This document shows positions 8,681 to 61,467 of a stretch of 64,000 bases of DNA, in pieces. The notes beneath the pieces are model-generated. The model saw only the letters and a list, made by a program, of their open reading frames with translations, ran no database searches and was not told where the DNA came from. Location: IMG/VR virus record IMGVR_UViG_3300034120_003123. The stretch is one strand, 5' to 3'. Both the position numbers and the translations under genes were made by a program. Source of the DNA: an uncultured virus (IMG/VR IMGVR_UViG_3300034120_003123) (Duplodnaviria; Heunggongvirae; Uroviricota; Caudoviricetes). Within the stretch, counting starts at the first letter, position 1. Each line of letters starts with the position of its first letter.

Positions 8681-8684
8681 GCTA

Positions 8685-8698: not shown

Positions 8699-8702
8699 AA
8701 AG

Positions 8703-29850: not shown

Positions 29851-29875
29851 GATATTTATTACTGTCCTTATATGA

Positions 29876-29888
29876 TATTTCGTAAATT
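29876..29888 (-). promoter_or_regulatory. Candidate promoter motif AATTTACGAAATA upstream of the 2587-aa gene
   Basis: In the 63-nt spacer, followed by an AAGGA SD-like sequence and TAAATA before the ATG. Confidence 0.4.
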
Positions 29889-29913
29889 AATTTAAAATAC
29901 TACTACAAGAGAT

Positions 29914-32900
29914 TCAAGTTACATTAAATATTTCATCCATATAAACCACTTTTCCACCTCTGCTTACAAATTCTACAAGACGCAATTCTTGAGCAAGAGA
30001 AAGCCATTCACGATGAGGTACTACTATTACCTTAATCCCATTTAATTCCCCATTTTTAAGCTGATCGTCAAGAACTAAGCTGTAAGGAATCATCTTATTT
30101 TCAAAAGATTGCATCGCGCCGAGTATGGGCCACCAGAATTCTCCCCAATTTTGTCCTAAAGAATTTGTGTTATTTGTTAAGTTTATAAGCTTATTAGATC
30201 CAGTCACATAGCCTGAGCCCCAAGCAACTGGAGCGTTGATCCCTATTCTGCCAGCGGTTGAAACATGTATTGCAGCCCAAGAATAAGCTTCCCTTATGCT
30301 TAATATTAGTCCTTCTTTAATAATTTCTTCTTTCATTTTTCTTGCATGATAAAGTGCTTTACGCCAAAATGAATAAGTATTTCCAGGAGATACTCCCTTA
30401 TTAGGATTATTATAATAACCGTCATTATTAATCAAAGTTGCGTCTTGTATAAATTCATCTTGATCTCCAGTCCATCCAGTCCCGTACCATGTATTAAAAT
30501 CAAAGATATTACCATTTTTAATCATAATTTGATATACTGCTCTTAAATATCCATGAATGCTATCTTCTCTTCCCAATCCTCTTTCAAAAAATAGCGGATA
30601 GCCAGTTGGATATAGATAAAATCTATCACTATTAAAAGTTGTCAAAGTATTTGCTGCTCCAGATGTGCCTAAAGGCAAATCAGATATCCAAACCCTTTGA
30701 GGATTCCACTGAATAGCAGTTTTATTTCCAGAGGCAAAATCAAGTTTCTGGTTCAAAGTCATAGAGAGATACATTGACGGCCTTTGTATGTCGCAATACA
30801 ATCTTTCATTATTAAGAACAGAATCAGTGAGCTCTGATTTCTTTCTAAGTCCACTATAGCCTCTTGGCTCTACTGCAAATTCAGTTTTTACAGCATGAGT
30901 ATGTCTGGCTATTTCTACGGAAACAGCACCATGTGGCTGGTCTGGCCAAGATGGAAGCTCGCCTGGGAAAAATACTGCATTCCCATTACTGGCGACAGAA
31001 ACAGCGTCAGATATCTCTCTAAGTATTTCGTGGTACTTATTTTTAATTATACTAACATATGATTTTAAATTTGCAATTTCATTTGCATCTAAATCATTGA
31101 TATTGTTCACAAGATTCCAATAACCAAGACCTTCAAATGTATTGTCTGGATATGCATCCCTGTAGGATGGTCTATCGCCACCTCCAACATATCCATTTTC
31201 TGTTGAAACTTCCCAGCCTGAAGTTTTTGGGAATGGAAAATTAACACTAGCCCAAGAAATATAATCAGGATCATCAAAACCTTCGTATCCTAAATATTTG
31301 GCAAAAACATCTATTGCGTCATTACTAAAATCTAAAAACTCCTCAAGTAAACTTGAATCCCAATAAATGCCATCGCAATTTAATCCACCACCAGATTCTG
31401 GAGTTACTATTTCTATCATGCAATTCTTCAAAAAATTCTTAAAGTTAGTATTGAATATACTTCTTTGCACGCTACACGATTGAGTGAGATTGATTTCTAC
31501 TCTAATTTTTTGGCCATTAGCAGTTAATGCTGGCGGGAATATATCTTCTTTCAAGAAAGCAAAATGAGGTTTAAAATAAGCTGTACATTTCATTCCTAAC
31601 TCATGAGACTTTCTTATAAAAGGCCTTACCATGTCATACTCGGGCAAGCCATATTCTTCAGATATCATTAAAGAACTCTGAGCTTGAGGAACCGCAGACT
31701 TATATATAAATGGCTCATCTCCATTATGCAAATCTATCATAACAATATCTGGCCTATATCTGTGAGCTACTATCGCTCGTTGCTCAGGATTAAACCATCG
31801 ATTAAGCCCATTATTAAATCTTTCCTTAAAATTACTTCCTTCAACTCGAATCCAATTATATTCTGACCTATAAACAAATTCATAACCAGGCGGATATCCG
31901 TTTGGACTTGAACTATAATATGGCCTTACGGAACAACCAGAAGATGGATTGTCGTATGCTAGCAATAATGATGGCTCAATTAAAGCCGAAGCAGATTCCT
32001 CCATATTGCCTTCATAAATCTGCTTGATCGTTGCATATGGATTAAAGGATTGAAAATGCACATTTGCAGTAGACCACCATGAAGGCTGATTTGGCCCAAC
32101 AGCAGACCTTGTATTTAAAACCCCAAACAAATTAATAGAACTAGAAGAAGAACTAGAAGAAGAACTAGAAGAAGAACTAGAAGAAGAACTAGAAGAAGAA
32201 CTAGAAGAAGAACTAGAAGAACTAGAAGAAGAACTAGAAGAAGAACTAGAAGAACTAGGAGGCCAATTAGGGCATATAACACAATTATCCCAAAAAGAAA
32301 GTAAAACACCTATGTCATTACCATTTACGAAACCATCACCGTTAAGATCTGCAATAGGATTATACTCTTCTTGAGAAGCCAAGAATATGTCGAAATCAAA
32401 CTGATTTACTACTCCATCCTGATTTGCATCCGGGCAGCCAGGACCATTCCACACAATGCACCCAGAACTTGAACTACTGCTTGAACTACTGCTTGAACTA
32501 CTGCTGCTTGAACTACTGCTGCTTGAACTACTGCTTGAACTACTGCTTGAACTACTGCTTGAACTACTGCTTGAACTACTGCTACCGTTCCAATTAGGAC
32601 ATTCGACGCACGAACCCCAATATGATTGAAGAATACCAAGATCCGCTCCGTTAACAACGCCATCTCCATTTAAGTCAGCAATCGGGTTATAATCTGTAAA
32701 AGCACTGAAATATACTCCAAGGTCTGCACCACCAACAAACCCGTCACCATCCATGTCCGGGCAGCCAGGACCAGTCCAAACAACACACCCAGAACTTGAA
32801 CTACTGCTGCTAGAACTACTGCTGCTTGAACTACTGCTGCTTGAACTACTGCTGCTTGAACTACTGCTACTGCTTGAACTACTGCTGCTTGAACTAGAAG

Positions 32901-35900
32901 GCGGCGTTTCGTACTTAAATTCTATTTCAAACCAAGAAAAATCAGATATAAAATTAGAAGATATTGACTGACCGCTTGAGCCGTTAGACCAAGAAACAAC
33001 TTTACTATCTACAGTATTATCAGCAAAATTTAAAGATATCTGTTTAGCAGACACCAAAGATATATAATTGTTGAAAGTTATAAATACAGAGAAACTTTTG
33101 CCAAATCCAGCTGGAGGATCTCCTGCATAATATGCAAACTGACCCAAAACTGGATAAGAGCCATCTGCATAGAATGAGTCATTACTATAAATACTAGAGA
33201 AAATTTGATTAGCAGATTGAGTATTTAACAAATCATTGTTTCTTGATGTCAATCCAAAAATGCCATTTTCATTTGTATTATTTCTAACATCAGCCCAATT
33301 TCTATCATTAGAAACACACACGACGATTCTATGCACATCGCTATTTAAGCCTGCGTCAAAAACACTTGATGGTTTCAAAAAGTACTTACCAGAATCAGTC
33401 ACTATAGAATTGTCAACATTTAATTTTACTTTTATTGGAGAACTGCCAACTAAGTTCTTGATCCGCAAAGAAAGCAAATTATATAAAGTAACGTAATCGG
33501 GCGTGGATTCAGATAAATCGCTTGCCGTACTATACCAGCGATTTCCTGTTTGACTCAACAAATCTTCTAAATAAATTACAGAACCCTCAAATTGATTGAG
33601 CTTATCTTTTTGCAAACTATTAAGAAGTTTTCTATGCGGAATAATTATTAATTTTAGACTAGAAAAATCACCATTTTCTAAACTAGAATCATTAATAACT
33701 GCAGAAGAAATTCCACTGTATATGCAAGTTTCGTATGCTCCTATTATTGGCCACGCAAATTCTCCTATTGTCATATTTCCAGAATAGCCATAGCGAGAAA
33801 GGTCAAGATTAATGTCACTGTAAAACTCTTGACCATTTGAAGAGACTGCATCTGATACATGAATATACTTTCTTGCTCTGTTTGCATAATGTATACCAAT
33901 CCAAGCATGCTTGTTTTGTCTATATAAACTAGATACGTTTTGCTTCAACTGATTATTGAGATCTATGACATTTAATATAAATGGCATATCATTTCTGGGA
34001 GGGTCGCTATTTATATAAGAATTTGATAAAGTATCTCCATCATCCTTATATGTACTCCAGCTTGGCATATCTAACATAACAATATGACCGGCGCGCATGT
34101 AGTCAAATACACAGGAAGCCAAATGGCCCTTAATGCCATCCTCTCTCACGATGCCATCTTCTACTATATTAGTAGAATTAACATTGTCAAATTCATTCCA
34201 CAAGCTACTAAAATCAGTGTCTCTGTATCTAAGTATATTTGGAATTTTCTTGACAATAATTTTCTTACCATCTGCAGATGAAAGTAAGTCAAGTCCAAAA
34301 TTTTCTACGGTCGCAGCGCCAGGTCTTTGTATATCTACTGTATTACTAGCTGCGCTGGGATTTTGGATTCTCCTTGAACGAGCTTGTTTTTCAATTCCTG
34401 AATTTGTACTAACAATACTAGAGTAATTTGAAATCTCAGCGCTTAAACAAGACTTCCAATTATAAAATATATCATTTTCAACGTGAGGAATTATGGCCTT
34501 TACTCTAGATCCATAGTATTCGTTAATTTTACTTTGCAAATACAGTATATTTGTATTAGCTAAATTGTGACAAAAAGCATGATATTCTATAACGGTATTT
34601 TTTATGTCTTGAGTGAATATGGTGCCAAATGTTGGGATTTTAAATGCAATGTCTTCAACACTTATATTTGCAGAAGAATCGCAACTTCCAGTAAAGCCAG
34701 CAGCATTATATAAGTAATTTCCTAAAATAGATCCACAAGCAACTGGGAATGGAAACTTTTCTTTAAATTCTGAGTCATCAATATTTTCATAACCTAAATA
34801 TCTAGCAAACTTTTCAATTACATTTGTAGAAAAATCTCCAAATTTTGAAACTACTTCTCTACTCCACATTATCCCGTCTATACCTTTATCAAATATTTCA
34901 TTATGATAATCAAAAGTTAAATCTACATAATCTTGGTTCAAAAAACTTCTTATAGATATATTGATTCCGCCATCAAAGTTTTCTTTTATAATCCCGCCAA
35001 AACAATTAAGACTATATGGATACTTGGCGGCAGGCAAGGTAACAAATGAACATGGATTTATTTCCACGATACACCTAGCATTTATAAAATTTGCAGCTAC
35101 AGAGTAAGAAAGCAGAATATCAACACCAAATCCTAGACCATACCGTGGATCATTTGTCAAAATATTCCATTGTCCAATTGCTGTATCAGTTGCATACCAC
35201 AATGGCTCATCATATTGATGAGCATTAAATACAAGTATATCTGGGGAATAACTTTGCGCATAATCTACGAAATCTTGAATTTTTAATCCATTTAAGAAAG
35301 AAGATCTTGCAGTATTTATATTTCTTGTAGTACTGCAAGGCAAAGAAGTTTGAATATCATATAGACTACTTGTAGAAATATACTGTGTATTTATAAAAGA
35401 ACATACAATGACATCATCTACTGGAACTGAAGAAGATGCTGGCATATGCGGAACCGCTAAAGCTGCACAAGATTTTATATCCTCTGCAGTTAAATTAAAT
35501 TTCATAGCCAGACTAGAATTGGATAACCATTCAGGATAATCAGGACCTCTTGAAGGTCTAAAACCTATAGTGTTAACGTTGTCATTAGTAGAGTTATATG
35601 ATCTGCAATTTCTAGAAATTTCAGATTTTAACTCAGCAAGATTATTTAATCCATAAGCAGCAATTGCGTTATAACTAGTACTGTCTGCACCGCTTATTTC
35701 AAAACCAATGACATTTGAAATTGCAGACAAAGCCCCATTATCATTAGAAGAATCTGAGTCAAACAATTCCAGCCATCTAAGAATAACGTCTGAACTATCT
35801 ATAAAACCATGAACATAATCTGCTGTAATCGCTACTGACTGTCTATACTGATAACCAGGTAAGGCATTAAAGTCTACATAACTTTCTTTTGAAACAATAC

Positions 35901-38900
35901 CAAAAATTGTTTTAACTAGATTTTTGGATGCCAACCAATCATTAAAGCCCTTACTAACAGATCTAATGTAGGCCAGGTATTCAGCGTATTCTTCAGTATT
36001 TTTTACTGAAATTTCCTGACGAAGATCTAAGCATATAAAATCAGATTCTGAAATTACGTCTTCTATAATTGAAGCACATTTATCTATATAGTTGAACTTT
36101 ACAGAATCACTAGCAGAAGACCAAGTTATATTAGGTGCAATAAAAGGAACAACAGGACAATTTAATAAGCCTACTTTTGCTTTAGGAGAAGAATTCTTTA
36201 TTGCCTGAATATTTTCAAACATTTGAGATATGCCAGATTGCAGAGAATCTCCCATTACTGCTAGCCCAGAAGCATTAGAAAGGTACTCAACAAACAACTG
36301 CTTTATCTTTGAAAATTCTGCACCAATATAACCTGTGTAGTCGATCAGATTAACATCACTATTTTTTAGCACAACTTCATTAATATAGTTAATCGCGCCA
36401 TTGTAATTATAACGTAAATTGTCGTTTTCATAAAATGCATATCTTTGGCAAGCATTTATTCTGAATACACCTGCGCCACACGAGTCTGCCTCATCGTAAG
36501 AATTCCTAGTGAGATATTTATCACTAATTTGTATCATCTTACTTACATTTTGAGGAAGAGAACTACTGTCTACACTAATCTCGTCAGCAGTAAATGCTGG
36601 AGCGACCCTATAGGTCAAGCACTGCTTGCACAAAGGTCCCTCAGCAACTGAAGAAATAAGTATAATTGACTTAGTCGCCGCATTATATGATAAAATATCT
36701 ATAGAACCAACATTAATTTCTGTTTCATACCAAATAGCAGGAGAGTTAGAATCAACCGCAAAAACATTACCATCAATAATTACTTCGTTCACATTAATAA
36801 CATCAGCTGTTATTCTCCACAAATGCTTATTCTTAATAGTTTTGCATCCAGTTATAAGTACTTTAGAATCTAGATCTATTCTTTGCACAGAACTTTCTAC
36901 AAGAGATATAATCTTGTTTCCAGTTCGCTGATTAACTTCTTTAAGTATTGAGTTGAGTAGCTGATAAGAGACTAAACCATTTTCAGGATACCAAGCAGTA
37001 TCTCCAGCTCCATCTGAATTTCTTGGATAGAACATGTATATAGCATTAGGATTATGTAGAGCTAAATGATACACGCCTTCAGCCCATAGAGAATTATGGT
37101 TAACATCATTTTTACCACCAAAGGCATTATTAAGAGTTAAGTTTCTACTACCTATCCATGGTATAAACTTCTGGTTCTCCCCATGCCTCCTAATAGCTTT
37201 AATTTCTTGCTGTTGAAGCAAAAGAGCATTCCATGCTCTTGAGCCAAAAGGAGTGCCTCCGGGATTGTATTGAGAAAGAAATCTTGTGCGAGTTTTATTA
37301 TTTGGATCTATTTCACTGTTTACGCTAATGCCACCAGCTTCTGCAAAAAGTAAAGGATTGGCAGTATCTCCACAAAGCATGTCTCGATATGTGATATGCC
37401 CATTCATATCATTAAAATGGTCCTCTTTTGGCACATAAAAAGTCCATACATGGGTTGAATTATGGCCTGGGAAATATTCGCTAATAACATCATACCAATG
37501 TTTTTGCGCATACCAAATAGCATGCCTATACATCACGTAATCCCAATGCAAATATCCGCCCCTAAACTGAGGGTCGTCTACAGTCTTTGTGTCAACCACA
37601 TCAAAATCATTAATATTGTAGAAATCATTTAACCTTAACTGTTGAACTAAAGTTTGATTTATTTCTGAGGCATATCCAGCACTGGAATCAGTTAAAGATG
37701 CTCTTGGATCATTTATTATTTTTGTAAAGTGTGGTATTCTAGAGGTGTTGTTATTATCATATCTTAAAGAGCTTTCAGCCCAAAATCCAGTTGGATTTAA
37801 AGACTCATTATCTGATATAAAACCGTATATCTTTCCATTCAAGTTTTTATATTCTGCAACCCACTGTCTGGTAAATTGCTCTAATCTTGTGTTAGCTCCA
37901 AGCGTCCATGGTGATATAAAAGGAAGATTTCCTCTAAAAGTTGGATTTGATCCTTCTCTGGGATCTAAAGTGTCTTGTTTTACTATTTCCCCATTTACAT
38001 TTATGCAACTATCTGCAGGATTGTATAATTTATCATAAGTTTGATTGTAAATTGGATCGGCAAATACGCCGTCAAAAGTAGATGATCCAATATTAAAATA
38101 AAATACAAATCTTTTTACTGCTGGTATTCCTCTGGCATTAAAGAAGCCAATAGCATCAGATGGATTACCAATATGGCTTGGAGTAGGGCCTGTACCTGGC
38201 TCATCTAAAGTAGGACCTCCAGAAAGCCTTCCTCTCACCGTGAATACTGGATATACGAACTCAAGTACTGGGTCAGGTTCTTCATTATAAGGGACAGCAG
38301 CCACAATTGGTCTGTAATCAGAATAATCTGGCTGCAAAGGCGGGTTATCTAGACTAACGACATAATTTCCGCCTTCTCCTATCGTATTTGCAGAGAGCTT
38401 AGACATTCTGCTGGAGATAAGCTTCATTCCATAGTAATCCCAGTGATATATGTCGTTGAATCTTAAATGAGCGTCATCTGACTTAACCCAATATACTAGC
38501 TGTTGATCAACACATATTTCTAATATAGCATTATTAAAATCAGATATGCTATCAGTTAAATCTCCAGTTTTTGCTACATCGGGCAGCAAAGTAATAAATA
38601 CTGGAGAATTTACTCCCGTCACTGATCTAATATTATTAATTTTTTGTACTAATTTATTTTTCCACTGATCAACGTTAACATTTGATATGCAATCATTAAT
38701 TCCTATTTCGTACCATATATATGTCTGAGGAGAATACCCGTCAACATTGAGTTCCGAAATTGCTGCAGAGTATCTTTGCAAGAACAAGTTCCAGTAAATT
38801 CCTGAAGTGTCCCAATCTCCAGGTATACTGTCATCTCCTATTTTAGACCCACCGTGACCAGCCTTGATGAGATATGCAACATCCCTAGAGAACATTTTAT

Positions 38901-41900
38901 CTCTAACTGCATTGGCAAGACCCAGCTCCCAGCCATGAGGAGAACCTCCATTGCTATTCCATACAGAATCTGTTACATCTGGTATGCCATTCGGACCACG
39001 ATGATCTAATATATTGTTTCCACTTGACGAAATATTAAGATTTTCAAAATTTAAAGTATAATTATTTAGTATCTTTACTTCTGGTCTAATACCAAGTTCT
39101 TCAGGCAATGCTTGAGAATTTCTAGCCAAACCACCAGAATTAGATTCTCCAATCATGATAATTAATGGAACATAAAGATTACTGCTAGTATTATTAATAT
39201 AAGAATTAATAAATGATATATTATTATATATTGAAGTCTCAAAAACATCAATCAATGTGGACTGATCTGAGCAGCCATCTATAGACAAGTCCCAACAGCT
39301 ATTTACTGCACCATATACTTCAGGATTAGAAATAGAAATGGGACAATTTTCAAAAATTAATTTTTCTATGTTTTCTTGCTCTGAATAATATACAAACCCA
39401 TCTATGTTTTTGTTGGTAAAAGGATCAATAGATTCTTTAATAATTTCTGCATTAGAAACTTTACAATAATCATTCTGACCTAAACCGTCAGAAGATAAAT
39501 GAACTCCATTAATTTCAACAAATATAGATGGACAATCTGCTTGTCTATATTCAAAATGTTTAACCAAACATGAAAGTCTTAGCTTTGATGCAGAGACCGA
39601 ATCAAGAGCTGAAGAAAGATCAGGCTCTGCACTTTCATTCCCGTTCCACAAGTAAATAAAGTCACATGCTTCCAACAAAGGTCCATAAAATTCAGATACT
39701 CTTTTACTCAATTCTTTTCTAGCATTAGGGGTGCAATTAATGGCAGAATAAGGAGTTTTAGATGTCATGCTTTCTTCAAAATCACTGTCATTAATTCTTC
39801 CAAGACCTCTAATAGATACAGAAATGTTTTGATTAATAAATTTAATTGCATTAATCAGTGCTATCAAATTACCATTCACATAAGCTATTGCTCTTCTAAC
39901 ATTATCATAAGAATCTGAACCCTGCGAATTTATTGTAAATGGGTACGAGCAAGCGTAGGCGTGTAGGGAGCTCTGATTATCGTTTATGTTAAATAAGTGA
40001 TTAAAATCTATTACAACACCCGCATAGTAATCTGTGATGTCTTTCTCGCCTAAAGTGTAATTAAATATTGCGTCATTTATATCAGAAATATATTTTACTA
40101 CACCATCTATGATTGGCATGCCATTAGAGTCAATATTGTAGTAAATACTTGAATTATCACTTACCGGTTTAATAAAAAGCATCAAACCATTTGATATGTC
40201 TGAGACAGAAGATATTTCATTTTCTACAAAACTTGCCCAAGAAGAGCCATCATCAGGATTTAAAGATCTGTCTATTTTTGCTTTTGAAGCATAAATCTTG
40301 TAAGTTGAAGAGCTTTCGCACTCGCATGCGCTATTAGCATTAACTTCCTGATAAAGAGAAGATAGCGATGGCAGGTTAGAAGCTATAGTACAAATCCCCT
40401 CATTTTGAATGACAATTCCACCTATAGAAAAATCGCCATTACCACAAGGGTTAACTTCAGTAGACTCTAAAAATCCCAACAAAGTGTGAGAAGTCGGATA
40501 TCCAATTTCTCCAATACAGTTTCGCAACCAGTCATATGCGTCAGGATTAGATCGAGCATGACTCTCTAGCTCTGAAAATATTGTATTTGCAACTACTTCG
40601 CTTTCCACTAAGGAATTGCCGCACACCAATCTAATCTTAATCACGTTAAATGAAGTCGGCTGAGATTGTAAATCATTAAGTAAATTAGCAAATTCATTAT
40701 TGTTAGAAATTTTAAGAGAATCTTGATTAACGCAAATTCCAACATGTGGGATAATCTGTTCGTTTTTCATTTGAACCTGAACAACTGAACCTATTTCAAA
40801 AGGTACAACATCTATCATATCCCCATTAACAAACATATCAACTGGTCCAAATATTCCACTTTCTTTATCAAGTAGTAATTGACGTAATCTATAAGGAGAC
40901 TGAGATGCATTGAAAGTTATTCTAGCACCTCTATTGCTGTTCCAAACTGGAGGATATCCTGCATAGTAGTTTAACTTTCCTCTTGCTGGTAATACATCTA
41001 CTGGAATAGCTCCTGCAGCAGCGTGCTCAACATAATAACAATCTCTTCCAGCAAGGGTGTTGATAGTCGTAAAAGTATCAGAATAAGTGCAACTGCAAAC
41101 ATCTAAAATCTTCCTTAAACCCAACGAACTTACCAGATCATTCTCTGGATCATTTGGAGAAGCTAGTAGCAGATTTTGCCTACCACATGTTCCATTAATA
41201 GGATAATTATTTGTCGTAAGCCCAAAGAAGCCAAACTTTCTTGCATCATGCCATGCAGCATCTGCAATAAGCGTAACAAGCAATGATTCATTCCCATATG
41301 AGTCTAATCCTATTTCATATCCTGCTATAGGAACTGGTTTTTCAGGCAAACTATCTGGATAAGAAAATTCTGTCTGTAATACGATATTTCTTGAACCTTG
41401 CTGAATTAACGTCCATAGCTGGTCTCTTGCAACTTGCCCTCTAGTCTTATTCCCAACTAATTCCGTATTATGGAAATTGTCATCAACTTGACCATTTGCA
41501 ATTTCATCTTGCAAGTATATTACATGTCCATTAAAACTGTCTAATTCTTGTCTTGCAGAAATGGGTAATAAATTTTTATCAAATGGTACTATAACAACGC
41601 CAGAATTAGTAAAATTATTAACCGTAAATGCATCATCTTGCGCGATTACATATGGGATGCCGTGCTCGACACACGTTTGTACTGCGCCAAAAATAGGCCA
41701 ATAATATGAGAAATTAGCATAAGACTCATTTATCCCAGTGTTTATAAAAGCATAACTTCCCCATCCTACTTCTGGCCTGTGCAATATTACGCACCATGCA
41801 ACATTAGTTCTATTAAACAACCTAACATTTGCGTCACCTATTGAACCTAATATGGACGAGATTCTTCTCATGAAGGGTAAGTGTTGAATAGCAAATGCGT

Positions 41901-44900
41901 CAGCACTATTTTCAAAACCAGAAAGATCTTCTATTTGGTCATATTTGTACCAATCATAAAACGCATACATAAATTCTGGAGTTGTATGTGAAACTAGAGC
42001 AAGAAGAGATTGATTTTCCAGCCAACCACGAACAGCTATGTCTCTTGGAAGAACATTATTTTTAAACTCTACCTTACCAGAATACCCACTATCAAAAGAT
42101 GTCAAACAAGACTTGAAGGTATCATCGCAAGTACCCCCAGATATCCAGTTTGGTATAAACCACTGGCCAATCTGCCATCCATAAGCCCTCTTGCCTGTGC
42201 GAGCTTGAGAAAGGAGCAAGTCGGTATGCATCGCAAGCCAAAGATCTGGCACTGATTTAGCGCCAGTTTTATTCGTAACTCCAGGTGCTTGTCTTCTGCG
42301 AACATACCCTTCTGCACCGATTTCAGTTTTTACTCCAGACGCATACAAAACAACGTCTTCAGAATTCCCAGGCCATTCAAAAGAAGGCTGAGAGTTTCCT
42401 ACTGCATGCAGTATAGCAAATTCCGAGTAGCCAGCCTGATCAACTGCCTCTCTTATAGTTCTGACTATATCTGGCTGTTTATTATTTAAAGCATATACAT
42501 AAGCTTGAAGCTTATCTTTTACTGCCTGAGTCCATCCAAAAGAAGGATTGGGATCTCTTAGTAGCAAAGTTCCAGGGTTGGCATTGGCAGTTACACTACT
42601 AACAAAGTCAGTCAAAGCAGTGGTGTCAGAGCCGTCTGCTGGATTATTCAATGGCCATGGAAAGTTTGTAGTTGAATCGATACCAGATGCGGATATTGCA
42701 TCTGGACTAAAATCTAGTGTATAAAACAATGGAGCTGCATCCCACATGCAACCATTAAACCCATATCCAGTTTCTAGATCATAGCATTTTTGAGCCATCT
42801 CAACGTGTATTTTAGCAAGTAATTCAACAAATGCACTATTGAAACAAGATCTATAACTAATATTAGGTCCGTGACGACCTTCAATAACATGATTTCCAAA
42901 AATGTCTAAAGCATATGGATAAACAGAAGAATCAAGCTCAATCCAAGCAAATGGGAAAAAATAAGCCATTAATTTTTGTTTATACTTATTAGATGCGTCC
43001 TTATATGCCTGAACAACGTCTAATCCCAATCCCATGGAAGTAGATTCTTCCCCATCATCTGCTAACAAGGCCCACTGCTGCATCCCTGGGATTTGAGTGT
43101 CCCACCATAAAGGCTCAGAGCCGCCATGTAAAAATACTAAAGCCCAATCTGGACTGTATCTTGACATTCCCCTGATCATTCCATCAACATCAAAATATTC
43201 TTTAAATGCTGCTCTTGTGCCAGCTATTTTTGAAGTATTTCCGCTACCACATGCAGGCAAAGTTGAAAGTTCGTAAGTCAAACTTGATGGTAAGCTCCAT
43301 CGCTTAAACCAATTTATGCCACCGTCAACAGTGCTGGTGCAAAGTCCAGAACCTAACGTGCAAATCTGGCAAGTTTCATATGAGCCGCCCGGATAATATT
43401 CAGACCCGACTTCTGAGGCAGATACTGGAAAATTTCTTACGTTTTGATCATACCACAAAACCATATCAAACGCACTAAACTGATATTGTAAAGCAAATGT
43501 GGAAGACTGAAAAAATTCTACTTGATTAGATCCAAGAACTGGAAAACCAGAAATAGGAACTGTCTGAAAATCTGCAACTTCTATAATATCTGGCGAAACT
43601 TCTTCTGTGCAATCCTGTCTTGCGCCACAGTCGGACTTTGAACCTTCATAAGAGTTTCCTAAAATATCAGTATTTAACAATGTAGCTGTTTCTATTCCTT
43701 TAGCTGGATTAGACACTCCATTTAAACTAACACATAAAAGCGAAAGATTACCCTCACTATAGTTTTTTACAATTTTATGAACACTTTGATTAACTTGCTT
43801 ATTTTTATCATTAACAATTAATGATAAAAATAACGGATTATTTGACTGAGTTGGTAATAAAAATATATTGGAAGATATTTCTGAATTAGAATTTAAAAAT
43901 CCCTGATTTAATGCGACAGAGCCTGCTCCAAGGGACGCAGACGAACCAGAAGTAGAGTCTACAATAATCCCATTGAGCAGATTACTTTTACAATACACGT
44001 CTGAGACTAAGACATCACCGCCCCAAACTCCACCACTAGCATCATGTATAGACAAATAGTCTAACATACTATTGTGTGACATGAAAATCTGCTTTATACC
44101 ATTATATATGTATGATTTACCTGGACCTCCAGTAGCTCTAGAAAAATAATTTGATACAATTGCAAAACCTTCAAAGTAAATTTCTGAATCAAAAACGTTA
44201 CGATGTGGATTAATCCTAAAATGAGATATAGCAGATTTATTAATCTGATTCTTTGCAACTATAATGTTACTTTTTGCCAATGAAGTATGGCTAAAATTAA
44301 TGACAGCTGAATCTGCGACAGCACCAACATTGCCGACATTAGATATATTGCAAGAGAAAATTGAAGCACAATTTTTAATTGCAAACTCTACAGTATTACC
44401 AATTCCACATTGCTTTAACATTACAAAACCGTCAAATCCTCTATAAAGACTATTTACATTGCAATTAGTGGCAAAACCAACTACATTTTGAGCAATACCC
44501 GGATATGCTTTAAAAAAAATATTAACTTGATTGTTCAAAGTAGATACTAGAGTATCAACAGAGACGCCTGAGCGTCCTCTAATAGAGCAGTTGTTTAACC
44601 ACACACCTCTAGAATCAAATCCATAAGAACCGTCAGTAGAAATAATGTAATCTTTTTCTCCCGAAACATTTGTACTACTGTCATAGAAATTTTCCAATGT
44701 TATATTTTCAAAGACAGTAAACCTAGAGACTAAAGTATTTGATTTTACAGCATAGCTCGTCGGATTGGCAACACTGCCAAAATTAGTTGAACGATTTGTA
44801 ATTACGACATCTTTTTTACTTAAACCATCCAGCGCTTTTATTTTTAACCAACCTATTCTTCCAGCACCCAAAGCAAGTGCAGATGGAGTTCCAGAAGAAT

Positions 44901-46701
44901 AATCACCATTTAACAATGGACTTAGCCTGTACTCTCCAGCTTTGCATATAATCACATCTTCTTTAATAGAATTTTCTAAATGAAATGCGTGTGCTGCGGG
45001 AATCGCATTCCATAAATTTTTAAATGGGCTATTAAAAGAACCATTATTCGAATCATCTCCATTAACCGCATCTACATATACCGTATTGCCATCATAAGAG
45101 CCACGATTAACAATAAAAGTAAAATCGACTTCTCCATTATTAAAATAATTATAAGGATCAGATATACTACTATATTTAGGCAACCAAGAACCTTGAAGTA
45201 CTCTCTTTGTCCCATTATTTGCATAAACAATAGCTCTTATTGTGTGTATTCCCTCGGACCAAGAATCATTTATATCTATACTGCAAGCATACTCATCTTG
45301 CTTAGAACTAGAGTCAGCAACCGGATTTATAACACCTATAATATGAGCTCCAGATTCGTACTCTCCTCCATCGCATATAAAATCTACACGCTTTATTCCT
45401 GTAGAGTGATAGGCGACAACGGAGGCCTTTACCGACTCACCATCATGGATCCACTGCAATGGAACACTGGACCAACGAGCTATAGGAGGAGAGTCAGTAT
45501 CGGAAGTCATATCGATATTCCTTGCAAACGGATTATCAGAAGATATGGGCATCCACAAACCTGAGTCAACATTACTTGAACTACTGCTTGAACTACTGCT
45601 TGAACTACCTATGGAGCTACTGCTTGACGAATTGCCGCCTCCGGTAGTAGAGTAATTGACTAAGCCAATATTGTACCCGATTCTATCAAAAATATATTGT
45701 TTTAAAGCATCAAACCATTTTTTTGTAGCCGTTGGATTTGCAGTATTGCCGTTGTCTGATATCGTCATTCCACCCCAAGCAGAGTATAAAAAACATGTTT
45801 CATCAATACCAGGAACATAAGCAAACACTGGAGTCCCGCTGTCGCCAACCCAAACACTAAATGTAGATTGCGTTGGAACGCCGGAAACTAAACTGCCTCT
45901 ATATGCAGCATCAGGATACAAATTTATATTAAAATAATCATTTCCTAAAGAATTCAGTACAGATACAACGCTTTGAGGAGAAACATAAAAAAGTGGAACA
46001 CTTGTTGGCAAATTAAATGCATTTAAAAATTTATAAACTTTAATTTGTTGCATTTCCTGCTCTGTAAGAGCAGTGTCTAATTCAAATAAAGTATAATCAA
46101 AAGATGAATTTGGCCAATTATATCCAGGTGGAAAATTAGATGAATTACTAAAGTCTATAAGCTTTGTTGCATTTCTAGTAACTACTTGATTATTTTTTCC
46201 AAGCAAGCGTATTGAAGTGTTGTTGTTGCCAGAACCAACATAGTGTGCTGTTGCAAGAAAATGTTTTGGGCTAATCAAGACTTTTGCCCATGCTCCATTA
46301 TTCCAATGATTATAATTAGAAGCTATTTCAAAATTACCAACAGGACAGCCTAAATGGTAGCAGTCTGCATTGTTGCCAAACGACCTAAACTGGCCAGCTA
46401 TGCTAGGCAGAGTAACAGATCCACTGCCAGAATTTACCAAAACACCGGATGGTAGATACCCAGACTGACCTTCGTATTGATTAAATCCGTAACCAGGAGC
46501 ACCCCTACCTTCACGATCCATTCCGCTAAAATCAACATTAAAATTTAAATTATAAAATGGATCTTTAATAAATAAATTTTGATTATAACCAGTTGGATAT
46601 ACTCTTCTATTATTTTGCCAATTACTAGGATCTATAATCGGCTGAGACCCATAGGTGTACAGGTCATGTAAATTAGGTTTATAGTTAATTATGTAAGCCA
46701 T
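29914..46701 (-). CDS. Giant 5595-aa multi-enzyme protein: trypsin-like protease, DUF1565/beta-helix, 3x GH42/GH151/GHL6-like modules, SASA/CE6-like esterase, further TIM-like domains, 2 dockerins, poly-Ser linkers
   Basis: Protease: LISPKHFLATAH/DYTLFELD/GDSGTP. DUF1565-like: TVYVDAVNGDDSNNGS..PFK. GH modules: three copies of Y[SR]PD...EP...[ND]G..W[DS]...WPI.GA...[VI][IV]Y. Esterase: GESNSGG/GHGGS/GINDC/DIYH. Dockerin: DLNGDGVVNGADLG. No signal peptide. Confidence 0.88.
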   Translation of the reverse strand: MAYIINYKPNLHDLYTYGSQPIIDPSNWQNNRRVYPTGYNQNLFIKDPFYNLNFNVDFSGMDREGRGAPGYGFNQYEGQSGYLPSGVLVNSGSGSVTLPSIAGQFRSFGNNADCYHLGCPVGNFEIASNYNHWNNGAWAKVLISPKHFLATAHYVGSGNNNTSIRLLGKNNQVVTRNATKLIDFSNSSNFPPGYNWPNSSFDYTLFELDTALTEQEMQQIKVYKFLNAFNLPTSVPLFYVSPQSVVSVLNSLGNDYFNINLYPDAAYRGSLVSGVPTQSTFSVWVGDSGTPVFAYVPGIDETCFLYSAWGGMTISDNGNTANPTATKKWFDALKQYIFDRIGYNIGLVNYSTTGGGNSSSSSSIGSSSSSSSSSSSNVDSGLWMPISSDNPFARNIDMTSDTDSPPIARWSSVPLQWIHDGESVKASVVAYHSTGIKRVDFICDGGEYESGAHIIGVINPVADSSSKQDEYACSIDINDSWSEGIHTIRAIVYANNGTKRVLQGSWLPKYSSISDPYNYFNNGEVDFTFIVNRGSYDGNTVYVDAVNGDDSNNGSFNSPFKNLWNAIPAAHAFHLENSIKEDVIICKAGEYRLSPLLNGDYSSGTPSALALGAGRIGWLKIKALDGLSKKDVVITNRSTNFGSVANPTSYAVKSNTLVSRFTVFENITLENFYDSSTNVSGEKDYIISTDGSYGFDSRGVWLNNCSIRGRSGVSVDTLVSTLNNQVNIFFKAYPGIAQNVVGFATNCNVNSLYRGFDGFVMLKQCGIGNTVEFAIKNCASIFSCNISNVGNVGAVADSAVINFSHTSLAKSNIIVAKNQINKSAISHFRINPHRNVFDSEIYFEGFAIVSNYFSRATGGPGKSYIYNGIKQIFMSHNSMLDYLSIHDASGGVWGGDVLVSDVYCKSNLLNGIIVDSTSGSSASLGAGSVALNQGFLNSNSEISSNIFLLPTQSNNPLFLSLIVNDKNKQVNQSVHKIVKNYSEGNLSLLCVSLNGVSNPAKGIETATLLNTDILGNSYEGSKSDCGARQDCTEEVSPDIIEVADFQTVPISGFPVLGSNQVEFFQSSTFALQYQFSAFDMVLWYDQNVRNFPVSASEVGSEYYPGGSYETCQICTLGSGLCTSTVDGGINWFKRWSLPSSLTYELSTLPACGSGNTSKIAGTRAAFKEYFDVDGMIRGMSRYSPDWALVFLHGGSEPLWWDTQIPGMQQWALLADDGEESTSMGLGLDVVQAYKDASNKYKQKLMAYFFPFAWIELDSSVYPYALDIFGNHVIEGRHGPNISYRSCFNSAFVELLAKIHVEMAQKCYDLETGYGFNGCMWDAAPLFYTLDFSPDAISASGIDSTTNFPWPLNNPADGSDTTALTDFVSSVTANANPGTLLLRDPNPSFGWTQAVKDKLQAYVYALNNKQPDIVRTIREAVDQAGYSEFAILHAVGNSQPSFEWPGNSEDVVLYASGVKTEIGAEGYVRRRQAPGVTNKTGAKSVPDLWLAMHTDLLLSQARTGKRAYGWQIGQWFIPNWISGGTCDDTFKSCLTSFDSGYSGKVEFKNNVLPRDIAVRGWLENQSLLALVSHTTPEFMYAFYDWYKYDQIEDLSGFENSADAFAIQHLPFMRRISSILGSIGDANVRLFNRTNVAWCVILHRPEVGWGSYAFINTGINESYANFSYYWPIFGAVQTCVEHGIPYVIAQDDAFTVNNFTNSGVVIVPFDKNLLPISARQELDSFNGHVIYLQDEIANGQVDDNFHNTELVGNKTRGQVARDQLWTLIQQGSRNIVLQTEFSYPDSLPEKPVPIAGYEIGLDSYGNESLLVTLIADAAWHDARKFGFFGLTTNNYPINGTCGRQNLLLASPNDPENDLVSSLGLRKILDVCSCTYSDTFTTINTLAGRDCYYVEHAAAGAIPVDVLPARGKLNYYAGYPPVWNSNRGARITFNASQSPYRLRQLLLDKESGIFGPVDMFVNGDMIDVVPFEIGSVVQVQMKNEQIIPHVGICVNQDSLKISNNNEFANLLNDLQSQPTSFNVIKIRLVCGNSLVESEVVANTIFSELESHARSNPDAYDWLRNCIGEIGYPTSHTLLGFLESTEVNPCGNGDFSIGGIVIQNEGICTIASNLPSLSSLYQEVNANSACECESSSTYKIYASKAKIDRSLNPDDGSSWASFVENEISSVSDISNGLMLFIKPVSDNSSIYYNIDSNGMPIIDGVVKYISDINDAIFNYTLGEKDITDYYAGVVIDFNHLFNINDNQSSLHAYACSYPFTINSQGSDSYDNVRRAIAYVNGNLIALINAIKFINQNISVSIRGLGRINDSDFEESMTSKTPYSAINCTPNARKELSKRVSEFYGPLLEACDFIYLWNGNESAEPDLSSALDSVSASKLRLSCLVKHFEYRQADCPSIFVEINGVHLSSDGLGQNDYCKVSNAEIIKESIDPFTNKNIDGFVYYSEQENIEKLIFENCPISISNPEVYGAVNSCWDLSIDGCSDQSTLIDVFETSIYNNISFINSYINNTSSNLYVPLIIMIGESNSGGLARNSQALPEELGIRPEVKILNNYTLNFENLNISSSGNNILDHRGPNGIPDVTDSVWNSNGGSPHGWELGLANAVRDKMFSRDVAYLIKAGHGGSKIGDDSIPGDWDTSGIYWNLFLQRYSAAISELNVDGYSPQTYIWYEIGINDCISNVNVDQWKNKLVQKINNIRSVTGVNSPVFITLLPDVAKTGDLTDSISDFNNAILEICVDQQLVYWVKSDDAHLRFNDIYHWDYYGMKLISSRMSKLSANTIGEGGNYVVSLDNPPLQPDYSDYRPIVAAVPYNEEPDPVLEFVYPVFTVRGRLSGGPTLDEPGTGPTPSHIGNPSDAIGFFNARGIPAVKRFVFYFNIGSSTFDGVFADPIYNQTYDKLYNPADSCINVNGEIVKQDTLDPREGSNPTFRGNLPFISPWTLGANTRLEQFTRQWVAEYKNLNGKIYGFISDNESLNPTGFWAESSLRYDNNNTSRIPHFTKIINDPRASLTDSSAGYASEINQTLVQQLRLNDFYNINDFDVVDTKTVDDPQFRGGYLHWDYVMYRHAIWYAQKHWYDVISEYFPGHNSTHVWTFYVPKEDHFNDMNGHITYRDMLCGDTANPLLFAEAGGISVNSEIDPNNKTRTRFLSQYNPGGTPFGSRAWNALLLQQQEIKAIRRHGENQKFIPWIGSRNLTLNNAFGGKNDVNHNSLWAEGVYHLALHNPNAIYMFYPRNSDGAGDTAWYPENGLVSYQLLNSILKEVNQRTGNKIISLVESSVQRIDLDSKVLITGCKTIKNKHLWRITADVINVNEVIIDGNVFAVDSNSPAIWYETEINVGSIDILSYNAATKSIILISSVAEGPLCKQCLTYRVAPAFTADEISVDSSSLPQNVSKMIQISDKYLTRNSYDEADSCGAGVFRINACQRYAFYENDNLRYNYNGAINYINEVVLKNSDVNLIDYTGYIGAEFSKIKQLFVEYLSNASGLAVMGDSLQSGISQMFENIQAIKNSSPKAKVGLLNCPVVPFIAPNITWSSASDSVKFNYIDKCASIIEDVISESDFICLDLRQEISVKNTEEYAEYLAYIRSVSKGFNDWLASKNLVKTIFGIVSKESYVDFNALPGYQYRQSVAITADYVHGFIDSSDVILRWLELFDSDSSNDNGALSAISNVIGFEISGADSTSYNAIAAYGLNNLAELKSEISRNCRSYNSTNDNVNTIGFRPSRGPDYPEWLSNSSLAMKFNLTAEDIKSCAALAVPHMPASSSVPVDDVIVCSFINTQYISTSSLYDIQTSLPCSTTRNINTARSSFLNGLKIQDFVDYAQSYSPDILVFNAHQYDEPLWYATDTAIGQWNILTNDPRYGLGFGVDILLSYSVAANFINARCIVEINPCSFVTLPAAKYPYSLNCFGGIIKENFDGGINISIRSFLNQDYVDLTFDYHNEIFDKGIDGIMWSREVVSKFGDFSTNVIEKFARYLGYENIDDSEFKEKFPFPVACGSILGNYLYNAAGFTGSCDSSANISVEDIAFKIPTFGTIFTQDIKNTVIEYHAFCHNLANTNILYLQSKINEYYGSRVKAIIPHVENDIFYNWKSCLSAEISNYSSIVSTNSGIEKQARSRRIQNPSAASNTVDIQRPGAATVENFGLDLLSSADGKKIIVKKIPNILRYRDTDFSSLWNEFDNVNSTNIVEDGIVREDGIKGHLASCVFDYMRAGHIVMLDMPSWSTYKDDGDTLSNSYINSDPPRNDMPFILNVIDLNNQLKQNVSSLYRQNKHAWIGIHYANRARKYIHVSDAVSSNGQEFYSDINLDLSRYGYSGNMTIGEFAWPIIGAYETCIYSGISSAVINDSSLENGDFSSLKLIIIPHRKLLNSLQKDKLNQFEGSVIYLEDLLSQTGNRWYSTASDLSESTPDYVTLYNLLSLRIKNLVGSSPIKVKLNVDNSIVTDSGKYFLKPSSVFDAGLNSDVHRIVVCVSNDRNWADVRNNTNENGIFGLTSRNNDLLNTQSANQIFSSIYSNDSFYADGSYPVLGQFAYYAGDPPAGFGKSFSVFITFNNYISLVSAKQISLNFADNTVDSKVVSWSNGSSGQSISSNFISDFSWFEIEFKYETPPSSSSSSSSSSSSSSSSSSSSSSSSSSSSSSSSSSSSGCVVWTGPGCPDMDGDGFVGGADLGVYFSAFTDYNPIADLNGDGVVNGADLGILQSYWGSCVECPNWNGSSSSSSSSSSSSSSSSSSSSSSSSSSSSSSSSSSSSSSSSGCIVWNGPGCPDANQDGVVNQFDFDIFLASQEEYNPIADLNGDGFVNGNDIGVLLSFWDNCVICPNWPPSSSSSSSSSSSSSSSSSSSSSSSSSSSSSSSSSSSSSSSSINLFGVLNTRSAVGPNQPSWWSTANVHFQSFNPYATIKQIYEGNMEESASALIEPSLLLAYDNPSSGCSVRPYYSSSPNGYPPGYEFVYRSEYNWIRVEGSNFKERFNNGLNRWFNPEQRAIVAHRYRPDIVMIDLHNGDEPFIYKSAVPQAQSSLMISEEYGLPEYDMVRPFIRKSHELGMKCTAYFKPHFAFLKEDIFPPALTANGQKIRVEINLTQSCSVQRSIFNTNFKNFLKNCMIEIVTPESGGGLNCDGIYWDSSLLEEFLDFSNDAIDVFAKYLGYEGFDDPDYISWASVNFPFPKTSGWEVSTENGYVGGGDRPSYRDAYPDNTFEGLGYWNLVNNINDLDANEIANLKSYVSIIKNKYHEILREISDAVSVASNGNAVFFPGELPSWPDQPHGAVSVEIARHTHAVKTEFAVEPRGYSGLRKKSELTDSVLNNERLYCDIQRPSMYLSMTLNQKLDFASGNKTAIQWNPQRVWISDLPLGTSGAANTLTTFNSDRFYLYPTGYPLFFERGLGREDSIHGYLRAVYQIMIKNGNIFDFNTWYGTGWTGDQDEFIQDATLINNDGYYNNPNKGVSPGNTYSFWRKALYHARKMKEEIIKEGLILSIREAYSWAAIHVSTAGRIGINAPVAWGSGYVTGSNKLINLTNNTNSLGQNWGEFWWPILGAMQSFENKMIPYSLVLDDQLKNGELNGIKVIVVPHREWLSLAQELRLVEFVSRGGKVVYMDEIFNVT
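32138..32257. repeat. 12-bp tandem repeat (GAACTAGAAGAA)n with occasional 9-bp units; poly-Ser
   Basis: Read directly from the sequence. Confidence 0.95.
32262..32463 (-). other. Dockerin-like domain (second in the 5595-aa protein)
   Basis: GCPDANQDGVVNQFDF...IADLNGDGFVNGNDIGVLLSFW. Confidence 0.85.
32465..32584. repeat. 12/15-bp tandem repeat (GAACTACTGCTT / GAACTACTGCTGCTT); poly-Ser
   Basis: Read directly from the sequence. Confidence 0.95.
32590..32790 (-). other. Dockerin-like domain (first in the 5595-aa protein)
   Basis: GCPDMDGDGFVGGADLG...IADLNGDGVVNGADLGILQSYWG. Confidence 0.9.
32791..32899. repeat. 15-bp tandem repeat (GAACTACTGCTGCTT)n, imperfect; poly-Ser
   Basis: Read directly from the sequence. 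Confidence 0.95.
38390..39175 (-). other. SASA/CE6-like SGNH acetylesterase domain within the 5595-aa protein
   Basis: IMIGESNSGG (catalytic Ser), IKAGHGGS, WYEIGINDC, DIYHW (DxxH). Confidence 0.85.
45574..45630. repeat. Short poly-Ser repeat using the GAACTACTGCTT unit
   Basis: Same unit as the tract at 32465; separates the protease domain from the rest of the protein. Confidence 0.85.
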
Positions 46702-46768
46702 ATATTATTAACGGGTGAGCATATATTTAAAATAAACTGATGATACCATTTATATGAATATACATATA

Positions 46769-46783
46769 TATTTCGTATAAATT
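46769..46783 (-). promoter_or_regulatory. Candidate promoter motif AATTTATACGAAATA upstream of the 5595-aa gene
   Basis: In the 90-nt AT-rich spacer; shares TACGAAATA with 29876. Confidence 0.4.
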
Positions 46784-46791
46784 TTATTATT

Positions 46792-48498: not shown

Positions 48499-48501
48499 AT
48501 T

Positions 48502-50853: not shown

Positions 50854-50864
50854 AGTTTTCCTTT

Positions 50865-58288: not shown

Positions 58289-58295
58289 GACAAAA

Positions 58296-60829: not shown

Positions 60830-61467
60830 TAATCTTCTCTCCTTTTTCTCGGCACCCCATTAAGATAAAGATCGTCTAAAGATTTTTGAGATATATTATT
60901 TAATGAATTGTTAGTAAACTTAGAAGATAACCATGCAAAAAACTGGTCTGTTGCTTCGTCAGAAAAAGAATCACAAGTTGCGACTTCTTGCCATGTCGCA
61001 ATTACTTTTTTGCAAATTGCTGGAGCAGACGCTTGATCGCATATGTCCTTGTTAGCCCCTGGCTTATATCTAACACATATACTTTTGCCTTGATATGTTA
61101 CTATTTTTTCGCATTCAACATATGGCCTATTGTATTTCCTAGTACAACCTCTTCCTCCAACTCTGAAAGATAGCACAAATTGCAATATAGATATTCTCTG
61201 CTTTTCTGTTAATGCAGACCACTGCTGAAGTATGGACTCTTCTGAAGAAGTACTACTTGATGGAAGCTGTGGAGCACCAGCGGCCAAGTCAGATCCAGAT
61301 GTCCATGCCCTATATTTGCCCTGATATTTGGAAAGAAAAATTCTTGTTAATTTTGGAGTCCAATTTACAACAGCATCCACTAACTGCTGGTAGCTAGTAA
61401 AGCCACCAAAGCCTAAATCCTGGCCTCCGCCACCACCAGAATTGGAACCTCCTCCAGCGCCTGGCAT
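60829..61467 (-). CDS. 212-aa protein with Gly-rich N-terminus and six-Cys cluster
   Basis: TAATG coupling at both ends; MPGAGGGSNSGGGGG; six Cys within ~60 aa. Confidence 0.7.
   Translation of the reverse strand: MPGAGGGSNSGGGGGQDLGFGGFTSYQQLVDAVVNWTPKLTRIFLSKYQGKYRAWTSGSDLAAGAPQLPSSSTSSEESILQQWSALTEKQRISILQFVLSFRVGGRGCTRKYNRPYVECEKIVTYQGKSICVRYKPGANKDICDQASAPAICKKVIATWQEVATCDSFSDEATDQFFAWLSSKFTNNSLNNISQKSLDDLYLNGVPRKRRED

Follow-up and report, generated by a model that had tools for sequence, protein, structure and literature searches.

The 64,000-nucleotide (nt) stretch of an uncultured tailed virus analyzed here (IMG/VR record IMGVR_UViG_3300034120_003123; hereafter the window) contains one real, uninterrupted gene at 29914..46701 on the minus strand; it belongs to a tailed phage from fresh water and encodes a protein of 5595 amino acids (aa). 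We put the probability at roughly 60% that this giant protein is a virion-borne, polyvalent fiber that binds and degrades glycans of the host surface and carries no secretion signal. It appears to be a very large and complex form of a known type of phage protein, the depolymerase, and is notable for its size, the number of its enzyme-like modules, a protease-fold head, rare modules related to glycoside hydrolase (GH) family GH151, dockerins, and a last module that is split between two genes. All 21 large open reading frames (ORFs) of the window lie on the minus strand, to which the feature coordinates below refer.

From the N- to the C-terminus the chain comprises an S1-like protease domain, a serine-rich linker, an immunoglobulin (Ig)-like and beta-helix region (43567-45534), a glycosidase-like module (M1), an SGNH esterase, a second glycosidase-like module (M2), two dockerins, and a third glycosidase-like module (M3). 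This order agrees with the coordinates of a first-pass annotation that had been made from the sequence without database searches. Its count of at least six enzyme modules stands in part: five are enzyme-like by fold or family tests, whereas the beta-helix is a lead only and M2 lacks its catalytic pair. The four fold classes it distinguished are recovered (a serine-protease fold, an SGNH esterase, glycosidase-like modules with a triosephosphate isomerase (TIM) barrel, and a beta-helix), the last of them only probable.

The ORF, as first called, begins with ATG and runs for 5595 codons to a TGA stop with no internal stop, in a window that contains no N. When the window was shuffled 100 times by mononucleotide, its longest open frame had a mean length of 126 codons and a maximum of 161, so the ORF lies far beyond chance. 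GC content at third codon positions (GC3) is even over ten modules of the ORF (0.22–0.30). The runs listed for a 10-kb piece of the gene are all lake-water metagenomes (24 of 24), each with at least 86% of the sampled words, and no RNA data set is listed among them. Contigs were compared from four runs (X3, X4, X5, and X13), none of which was flagged as a possible source of the window. The two runs with long contigs, X3 and X4, show an identical layout: 29800-32166 is spanned by a contig of 8172 bases, 32839-45604 by one of 12766, and 45579-46800 by one of 32397, with no differences. In X5 and X13 numerous smaller contigs make up the gene, again with no differences.

Contig ends in X3 and X4 fall only inside repeats that code for poly-serine (45579-45604 and 32166-32839), exactly where an assembler might have misjoined separate genes into a 5595-residue chain that does not exist. 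Such an artifact would also fit the occurrence of the N-terminal domain as a separate, shorter protein in relatives, and the 31-mers that linkers 1 and 3 have in common. Repeated 31-mers occur at five places only in the window, all of them Ser linkers, and those common to linker 1 (45574-45608) and linker 3 number just five, a stretch of 35 bases that is unique at k = 51. Depth is equal on either side of the breaks (20.7 vs. 20.8 in X3, 14.7 vs. 14.5 in X4), the frame stays open through every linker with uniform GC3, and the sole alternative join through the linker repeat would leave a separate 13-kb circle without the context of a start codon. Together with the matching layout in independent contigs, these k-mer and depth checks make an assembly chimera, a concern already raised in the first-pass annotation, very improbable.

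Strain variation is visible within the gene. Dozens of contigs from the same lakes match it at 90% identity or more up to some point within 34177-46594 and continue there as dissimilar sequence, the points being spaced on the scale of modules, which suggests mosaic strain alleles. A 3-base deletion at 32203 was seen in three runs. X5 and X13 each have one low-depth contig with two extra bases, "AA", behind 43815, and contigs also diverge just upstream, at 43828; this may reflect a strain whose copy of the gene is broken or has a different start.

On its gene context, the giant gene is of phage origin: the window encodes a helicase, an exonuclease, and a translation initiation factor (IF3) that match PHROG families, and the N-terminal domain is encoded at 14 loci on viral contigs. 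The N-terminus of the protein has no hydrophobic stretch (maximum Kyte-Doolittle 10-residue mean of 0.32 in residues 1-40), and a simple scan found no transmembrane-like stretch in the chain (maximum 19-residue hydropathy mean of 1.48). This agrees with the earlier statement that a signal peptide is absent, by a crude test that is not a signal-peptide predictor.

The N-terminal domain (aa 1-350; 45652..46701) is, on the evidence of its predicted structure, a double beta-barrel of the chymotrypsin fold, S1-like (clan PA), with a His-Asp-Ser triad. A protein atlas scored it at 0.97 to protease clusters, several of them viral. In a model of aa 1-540 built from the alignment of homologues, the predicted local distance difference test score (pLDDT) is about 80 across residues 1-350; the first 50 Foldseek ranks in the PDB are all S1 trypsin-type proteases or the S6 autotransporter Hap (best E = 2e-4), and structural alignment with VIA-align placed 189 residues on thrombin (Z = 11.9, root-mean-square deviation 4.1). 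Thirteen homologues of 431–633 aa cover 94–95% of the domain at 26–50% identity, and among homologues it is the most conserved part of the protein. The S1 triad is defined by the motifs TAxH, D, and GDSG, in that order. Of the 14 sequences in the alignment, 13 retain His153 (in TAH), Asp202, and Ser288 (in GDSG), and the remaining one, P0049, lacks all three. No family matches this region in Pfam (E ≤ 5), NCBIfam (E ≤ 1), or PHROGs (E ≤ 1), and a sequence search of the PDB gave no usable match; since no curated sequence family matches, we file the domain as S1-like by fold and triad rather than under a named family. Its best viral match is an uncharacterized 452-aa protein of an uncultured tailed phage, and residues 1-1050 have no homologue among proteins of 3077–9792 aa.

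The indication of where the giant protein belongs comes from the places in which these homologues are encoded. At the 14 viral loci the domain heads proteins of 434–467, about 590, 886 (with RCC1), 945 (L012), 1030 (L013), and 1035 aa (L009), so that the same head is found on proteins from 431 to 5595 aa, a conserved N-terminus with a variable body. At six of the 11 loci scanned with PHROGs (L001, L002, L006, L007, L012, and L013), the S1-like gene lies no more than three genes from neck, baseplate, or tail genes. It stands directly before a head-closure gene in L001; after adaptor, head-closure, and sheath-stabilizer genes and before the terminase gene in L006 and L007; directly before adaptor, head-closure, and sheath-stabilizer genes in L012; directly before a baseplate wedge gene in L013; and before a tail-protein-like gene in L002. 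The scan of L003, L004, L005, L011, and L014 gave nothing informative near the S1-like gene. In T4-like viral contigs the domain is thus encoded next to neck, baseplate, or tail genes, either as a protein of its own or at the head of a shorter one, which is new relative to the first-pass annotation. The pattern is that of a conserved, presumably virion-attached head with a variable body, the attachment being read from the gene neighborhoods of homologues, and we consider aa 1-350 a probable virion-attachment and protease head.

Some of these loci resemble the window more closely. In L009 and L013 the S1-like ORF is preceded by a giant of some 2,900 aa that shares part of module F (see below); the giant of L009, the one scanned, contains Beta_helix and RCC1 domains. 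More generally, L009 (1163-13108), L013 (1220-13093), and L012 (29-12784) have S1-headed ORFs of 945–1035 aa directly after giants of 2141–2942 aa. L003 carries tandem S1-like paralogues at 8199-9665 (488 aa) and 10001-11365 (454 aa). Matches between the window ORFs and the 14 loci are limited to the N-terminal domain, RCC1 repeats, and part of module F.

The same gene contexts bear on a different view of the protein, namely a soluble enzyme chain that acts outside the virion, made late and either freed at lysis or retained in the cell, and that degrades host matrix or debris to let progeny escape, or removes receptors in the manner of a receptor-destroying enzyme. Lysis would be the exit route for a protein without a signal peptide, no tail-fiber family was detected, multi-enzyme proteins that are free or bound to a scaffold typically have dockerins and Ser-rich linkers, and three nearby glycosyltransferase genes suggest glycan-directed auxiliary functions. 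We nevertheless think a soluble chain rather unlikely, given the neck, baseplate, and tail blocks in which the N-terminal homologues sit at six of 11 loci, the location of the gene among successive giant ORFs on one strand that bear repeats of adhesin type (Kelch, RCC1, and laminin-G), and a strain-level mosaicism that fits a host-recognition gene.

The body of the proposed fiber includes the SGNH esterase (aa 2514-2766; 38404..39162), which the first-pass annotation had correctly identified. Scanned alone, this segment scores 29.8 bits to Pfam SASA (PF03629; cut-off 24.8) over profile positions 5-220 of 226, and it matches Lipase_GDSL_2 at E = 3e-4; inside a 2001-aa tile, the SASA score is 23.6 bits, below the cut-off. 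SGNH enzymes are defined by four blocks bearing Ser, Gly, Asn, and Asp-x-x-His. All four can be read from the sequence, as GESN (S2520), GG (2617-2618), GIND (N2669), and DIYH (D2750, H2753). A search of the PDB by sequence gave no usable match for this domain.

The three glycosidase-like modules, M1 (aa 1050-1950; 40852..43554), M2 (aa 3716-4576; 32974..35556), and M3 (aa 4856-5595; 29917..32136), are paralogues with 22–30% identity in self-comparison. M1 is composed of a TIM barrel, a Rossmann-like domain, and a third domain, of which M3 has the first two only. An exhaustive search of 1.84 billion representatives with a profile of the three modules returned just 35 proteins, 13 of them at E ≤ 1e-10. 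The strong matches are pieces of the giant proteins P0002 (3146 aa), P0003 (4412 aa), and P0007 (2456 aa), in which the same modules are shuffled. Twelve weak matches (515–811 aa) were scanned: eight (610–680 aa) carry Pfam GHL6, one of these also has a GH42 middle domain, and four have no family. When the module set was compared with the GHL6 proteins by hhalign, the two aligned over 483 columns spanning the barrel and second domain (probability 99.9, E = 4e-36).

Structure prediction points in the same direction. The M3 model (pLDDT 69.9; predicted template modeling score, pTM, 0.81) retrieved GH42, GH164, GH35-like, GH151, and Cwp19 chains with Foldseek, the best at E = 5e-10 (GH42), with about 650 columns aligned to GH42, GH164, and GH151 chains. 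In VIA-align, the GH151 structure 6tvk leads (Z = 21.7, 407 aligned, model residues 7-722), followed by Cwp19 (Z = 21.3), PgaB (Z = 20.8), and GH42 (Z = 19–20, about 440–450 aligned). By sequence, the combined profile matches 6tvk at E = 2e-15, and the three-module profile alone matches none of the PDB chains. Excerpts of a review (PMC10154630) describe GH151 as including Mfuc3 and ALfuk2 (6tvk), as consisting of a TIM barrel, a Rossmann-fold domain, and a C-terminal domain, and as using D154 (beta4; nucleophile) and E235 (beta6; acid/base). The fucosidase Mfuc3, found by a functional screen, matches GHL6 together with an A4 beta-galactosidase middle domain according to excerpts of the original report (PMC4723247).

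Two positions are conserved among the relatives of M1–M3. An Asp and the Glu of a K-x-E motif are each kept in 18 of 19 covering sequences (the two sets of 19 differ by one sequence), with M2 the sole exception in both. In the HMMER alignment the Asp, present as Asp1321 in M1 and Asp5115 in M3, aligns with SEQRES position 183 of 6tvk, which would be the nucleophile D154, provided that the 29-residue length difference (689 vs. 660) is an N-terminal tag. The Glu (Glu1460 and Glu5274) lies at the end of the sixth strand of the M3 model, by a strand count made by eye. M2 has Ser3947 and Asn4100 in their place. It is plausible, judging from these residues, that M1 and M3 are retaining glycosidases of unspecified substrate, while M2 is probably a non-catalytic binding module, because both conserved catalytic positions are lost. 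The three modules that the first-pass annotation had described simply as glycoside hydrolases are thus better seen as remotely GHL6/GH151-like, with the Asp/Glu pair kept in two and lost in one.

The phage modules share with ALfuk2 and Mfuc3 the TIM barrel, the Rossmann-like middle domain, and a further C-terminal domain, in addition to remote profile-level homology, an aligned nucleophile position, and a conserved Glu at the end of a later strand. They differ from GH151 in being about 14% identical to 6tvk, in an Asp-Glu spacing of 139–159 residues rather than 81, in having no Glu beside the nucleophile, and in occurring three times in one chain.

Two dockerin-like modules (aa 4633-4813; 32263..32805), as called initially, pass the cut-offs of both libraries (Pfam Dockerin_1, 41.8 bits against 22.9; NCBIfam dockerin_GC, 52.5 bits against 29). 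In whole-tile scans of the giant protein, Pfam and PHROGs returned only SASA and Dockerin_1, and NCBIfam only dockerin_GC. The two modules (aa 4638-4704 and 4747-4813) are 58% identical and contain four D-x-[DN]-x-D-G calcium-loop motifs, two per dockerin (aa 4649, 4676, 4758, and 4785). No cohesin family was found in the 21 window ORFs at E ≤ 0.01. Cellulosomal dockerin enzymes are secreted via a signal peptide and usually have one terminal dockerin. The giant protein resembles such multi-enzyme proteins in having catalytic modules on Ser-rich linkers with dockerins, and differs from them in that it has no signal peptide, that its dockerins are internal and in tandem with a third in the next gene, and that no cohesin occurs in the window.

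Ser-rich linker 1 (aa 352-385; 45547..45648), built from a 12-nt tandem unit and the site where Logan contigs end, separates the protease head from the rest of the chain, and poly-Ser linkers 2–4 flank the dockerins (within 32146-32973). Linkers 1–3 are built from the same 12-nt unit and linker 4 from a different one (32137-32896 and 45575-45627); these repeats could serve as joints for module shuffling. Behind linker 1, the first-pass annotation had placed an Ig-like domain and a DUF1565-type beta-helix. The linker and the order of the domains are as it described, and both domain calls remain leads. The Ig-like domain (aa 390-530; 45112..45534) has a weak match to Big_7 (E = 0.045) and a model with pLDDT below 50. 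The probable right-handed beta-helix (aa 531-1045; 43567..45111) has a language-model score in the protein atlas of 0.95 to NosD/Beta_helix/DUF1565 clusters, with 146 features in common; it has no Pfam match at E ≤ 5 and shows nothing significant in BLASTP against two Pfam-positive beta-helices.

If the beta-helix lead is right, this part of the chain is laid out like Hap (PDB 3syj), whose chymotrypsin-fold protease at the N-terminus leads into a long stalk of beta-helix. Foldseek retrieved Hap with the N-terminal model (E = 9e-4), and in one atlas cluster 14% of the members carry Peptidase_S6. Unlike Hap, the giant protein has neither an autotransporter barrel nor a signal peptide, occurs in a phage context, and has sequence similarity below Pfam detection.

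Three further stretches lie between these modules. Module D (aa 1951-2500; 39202..40851) is collinear with M1 in P0002 and P0003. Module F (aa ~2850-3340; 36682..38154), whose alignment contains reference relatives only, is partly common to P0003, P0007, and the giant ORFs of L009 and L013. It has a D-N-E motif at aa 2961-2967 and an F-A-E-A-G-G motif at aa 3118-3124 (37330-37821), which we take to resemble the acid/base and nucleophile motifs of clan GH-A barrels. Module G (aa 3341-3700; 35602..36681) has a GDSL-like motif at aa 3481-3490 and a DxxH-like motif at aa 3626-3633, about 145 residues apart (35803-36261). These motifs are a hint that it could be a second, degenerate SGNH-type domain, although no family matches. 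A relationship between D and G was considered, and hhalign shows none. The first-pass annotation had called these stretches TIM-like; family and PDB searches assign them no fold.

The C-terminal end of the giant protein revealed a feature absent from the first-pass annotation: by comparison with relatives, the last glycosidase-like module is split over two ORFs. The giant ORF stops right after the second domain of M3. Its TGA stop and a 63-nt spacer with a second in-frame stop, TAA (29851..29916), precede the next ATG, which is in the same frame, and the 8172-base contigs of X3 and X4 reproduce this junction without differences. The final domain that M3 lacks corresponds to aa 1-213 (29212..29850) of the next ORF (22087-29850, 2587 aa), which are 41% identical to residues 2179-2404 of P0007 (E = 1e-45) and 43% identical to residues 856-1089 of P0006 (E = 7e-54). 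In these single chains the matching stretches directly follow an M3-like part, and because the module is continuous in both full-length relatives (2 of 2), we conclude that M3 is divided between two genes here. An hhalign comparison of the three-module profile with the N-terminus of the next ORF gave a probability of 2% and aligned only an N-D-x-x-W-x-D-x-R-K motif. A complex prediction of M3 with aa 1-215 of the next ORF scored 0.23 against a mark of 0.32, which speaks neither way.

The 5595-aa and 2587-aa giants probably descend from one unit, and their products may still act as one. Dockerin is the only part of the 5595-aa protein that the neighbor has in common with it (45–49% identity), and in the 2587-aa ORF it sits behind a poly-Ser linker of its own (repeat at 23957-24024). 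A more far-reaching idea, which we consider speculative and improbable, is that the two giants form one split appendage of ~8,200 residues held together by the divided GH151-like module, whose three dockerins would attach either the appendage or additional enzymes to a cohesin-like scaffold, located on the virion or on the surface of the host; this would be a virus-borne "cellulosome" with a serine-protease head, put together and continually reshuffled through recombination at Ser-linker DNA repeats.

For the fiber reading that we prefer, the modules suggest a division of labor. The conserved N-terminal domain would fix the chain to the neck or baseplate region, and its protease fold might cut a protein layer or process the fiber itself. 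The esterase would strip O-acetyl groups, M1 and M3, and possibly the beta-helix, would cut sugar linkages, and M2 and the dockerins would bind rather than cut. The 5595-aa and 2587-aa products could work as one unit of about 8,200 residues, and the modules may have been joined and reshuffled at the repeated Ser-linker DNA. That de-acetylation, glycan cleavage, and cleavage of a protein layer follow one another in sequence, as the first-pass annotation proposed, is conjecture.

A number of points weigh against a virion-borne, glycan-degrading fiber. Its location in the virion is deduced from the gene context of homologues, and this context is borrowed from distant relatives of the first 350 residues because the upstream neighbors of the gene itself carry no structural family. 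No PHROG tail-fiber or tailspike family matches any part of the protein, and a protease fold is not known to anchor fibers. The glycosidase assignment of M1–M3 is remote: no module matches Pfam GHL6 directly at E ≤ 5, M3 is 7–14% identical to solved structures with many TIM-barrel families within 2–3 Z units, and the K-x-E Glu is equated with the acid/base E235 only by strand count, because the HMMER alignment stops before E235. A Glu follows the nucleophile Asp in eight of 11 GHL6 proteins and in none of the phage modules. The beta-helix and Ig-like assignments are leads only, and modules D, F, and G, about 1,400 residues, match no Pfam or NCBIfam family, with no PDB match for the D and F profiles.

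Several of these observations would suit a protein that is mainly an adhesin, a very long fiber whose enzyme-like folds are lectin-type pseudo-enzymes with little or no catalysis. The missing Glu next to the nucleophile would then be unsurprising, as would M2, which has lost both catalytic positions yet is kept open and full-length, and the protease-domain homologue P0049, in which the whole triad is gone. We judge this distinctly unlikely. Thirteen of the 14 protease-domain sequences retain the triad, including some as low as 29% in identity; Asp and Glu are each kept in seven of eight phage-type sequences (M1, M3, and all other covering relatives); and all four SGNH blocks are present. Conservation at these three sets of sites argues for selection on catalysis.

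Virion-borne phage depolymerases, such as those of Klebsiella phage KP32, provide the closest model for a catalytic fiber, and coliphage G7C reportedly has a tailspike with an SGNH de-acetylase. Like tailspike and tail-fiber depolymerases, the giant protein is phage-encoded, has no signal peptide, combines a conserved N-terminal head with a variable body, varies mosaically among strains, and contains a probable beta-helix, an esterase, and glycosidase-type modules. Unlike them, it exceeds the usual length five- to tenfold, carries five or six enzyme-like modules from four fold classes where they have one or two, and has a protease-fold head, internal dockerins, no PHROG tail family, and a module split over two genes. 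Literature searches on GHL6, phage dockerins, multi-domain depolymerases, and giant proteins of freshwater or huge phages turned up no paper on such a protein.

If our reading is correct, the protein would be among the largest and most enzyme-rich phage proteins described, and it would mean that complex, acetylated cell envelopes are confronted by uncultured phages of fresh water with a full complement of enzymes in one polypeptide and not with a single depolymerase. The neck and baseplate gene blocks of T4-like phages would also be connected with a conserved head of protease fold. The very rare glycosidase-like family (35 relatives among 1.84 billion), with the GH151 fucosidases as nearest characterized kin, would be a target for enzyme discovery, and the split module and common Ser-linker repeats would make it possible to test how giant modular genes arise, come apart, and are joined again.

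The rest of the window gives the setting of the gene. Upstream (46792-63914), the ORFs have no recognizable family, structural families included, even at E ≤ 1, apart from a laminin-G-type domain at the C-terminus of a 1228-aa ORF. No related loci were found for a 568-aa ORF in this region, and DNA from 46792 to 54551 matches no phage record. A TATAAAT sequence resembling a T4 late promoter lies 53 nt upstream of the start codon; it is uninformative, as the window has 31 copies on that strand and 24 on the other. No tRNA was found in the window.

Downstream, the 2587-aa ORF contains a pectate-lyase-like stretch and RCC1 repeats in addition to the last domain of M3 and the dockerin. It is followed by a 497-aa ORF and by another giant ORF of 3965 aa (8703-20600), which has a Kelch/beta-propeller region and weak VWA and F5/8 type C matches; BLASTP showed nothing in common between the 3965-aa and 5595-aa proteins. 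Three consecutive glycosyltransferase (GT) genes (GT2, GT1 group, and GT2; 6113-8680) lie between the giant ORFs and the replication genes. PHROG matches in the window are to helicase (E = 9e-93), exonuclease (E = 2e-44), and IF3 (E = 3e-23), the last encoded at 252-746 (PHROG 9787; Pfam IF3_N, E = 2e-24). The helicase matches 2552 phage records, the best of them at 37% identity in Bacillus phages. P0002, a relative of the central block of the giant protein, sits on contigs of 245–250 kb, and for this reason the phage from which the window derives is probably large.

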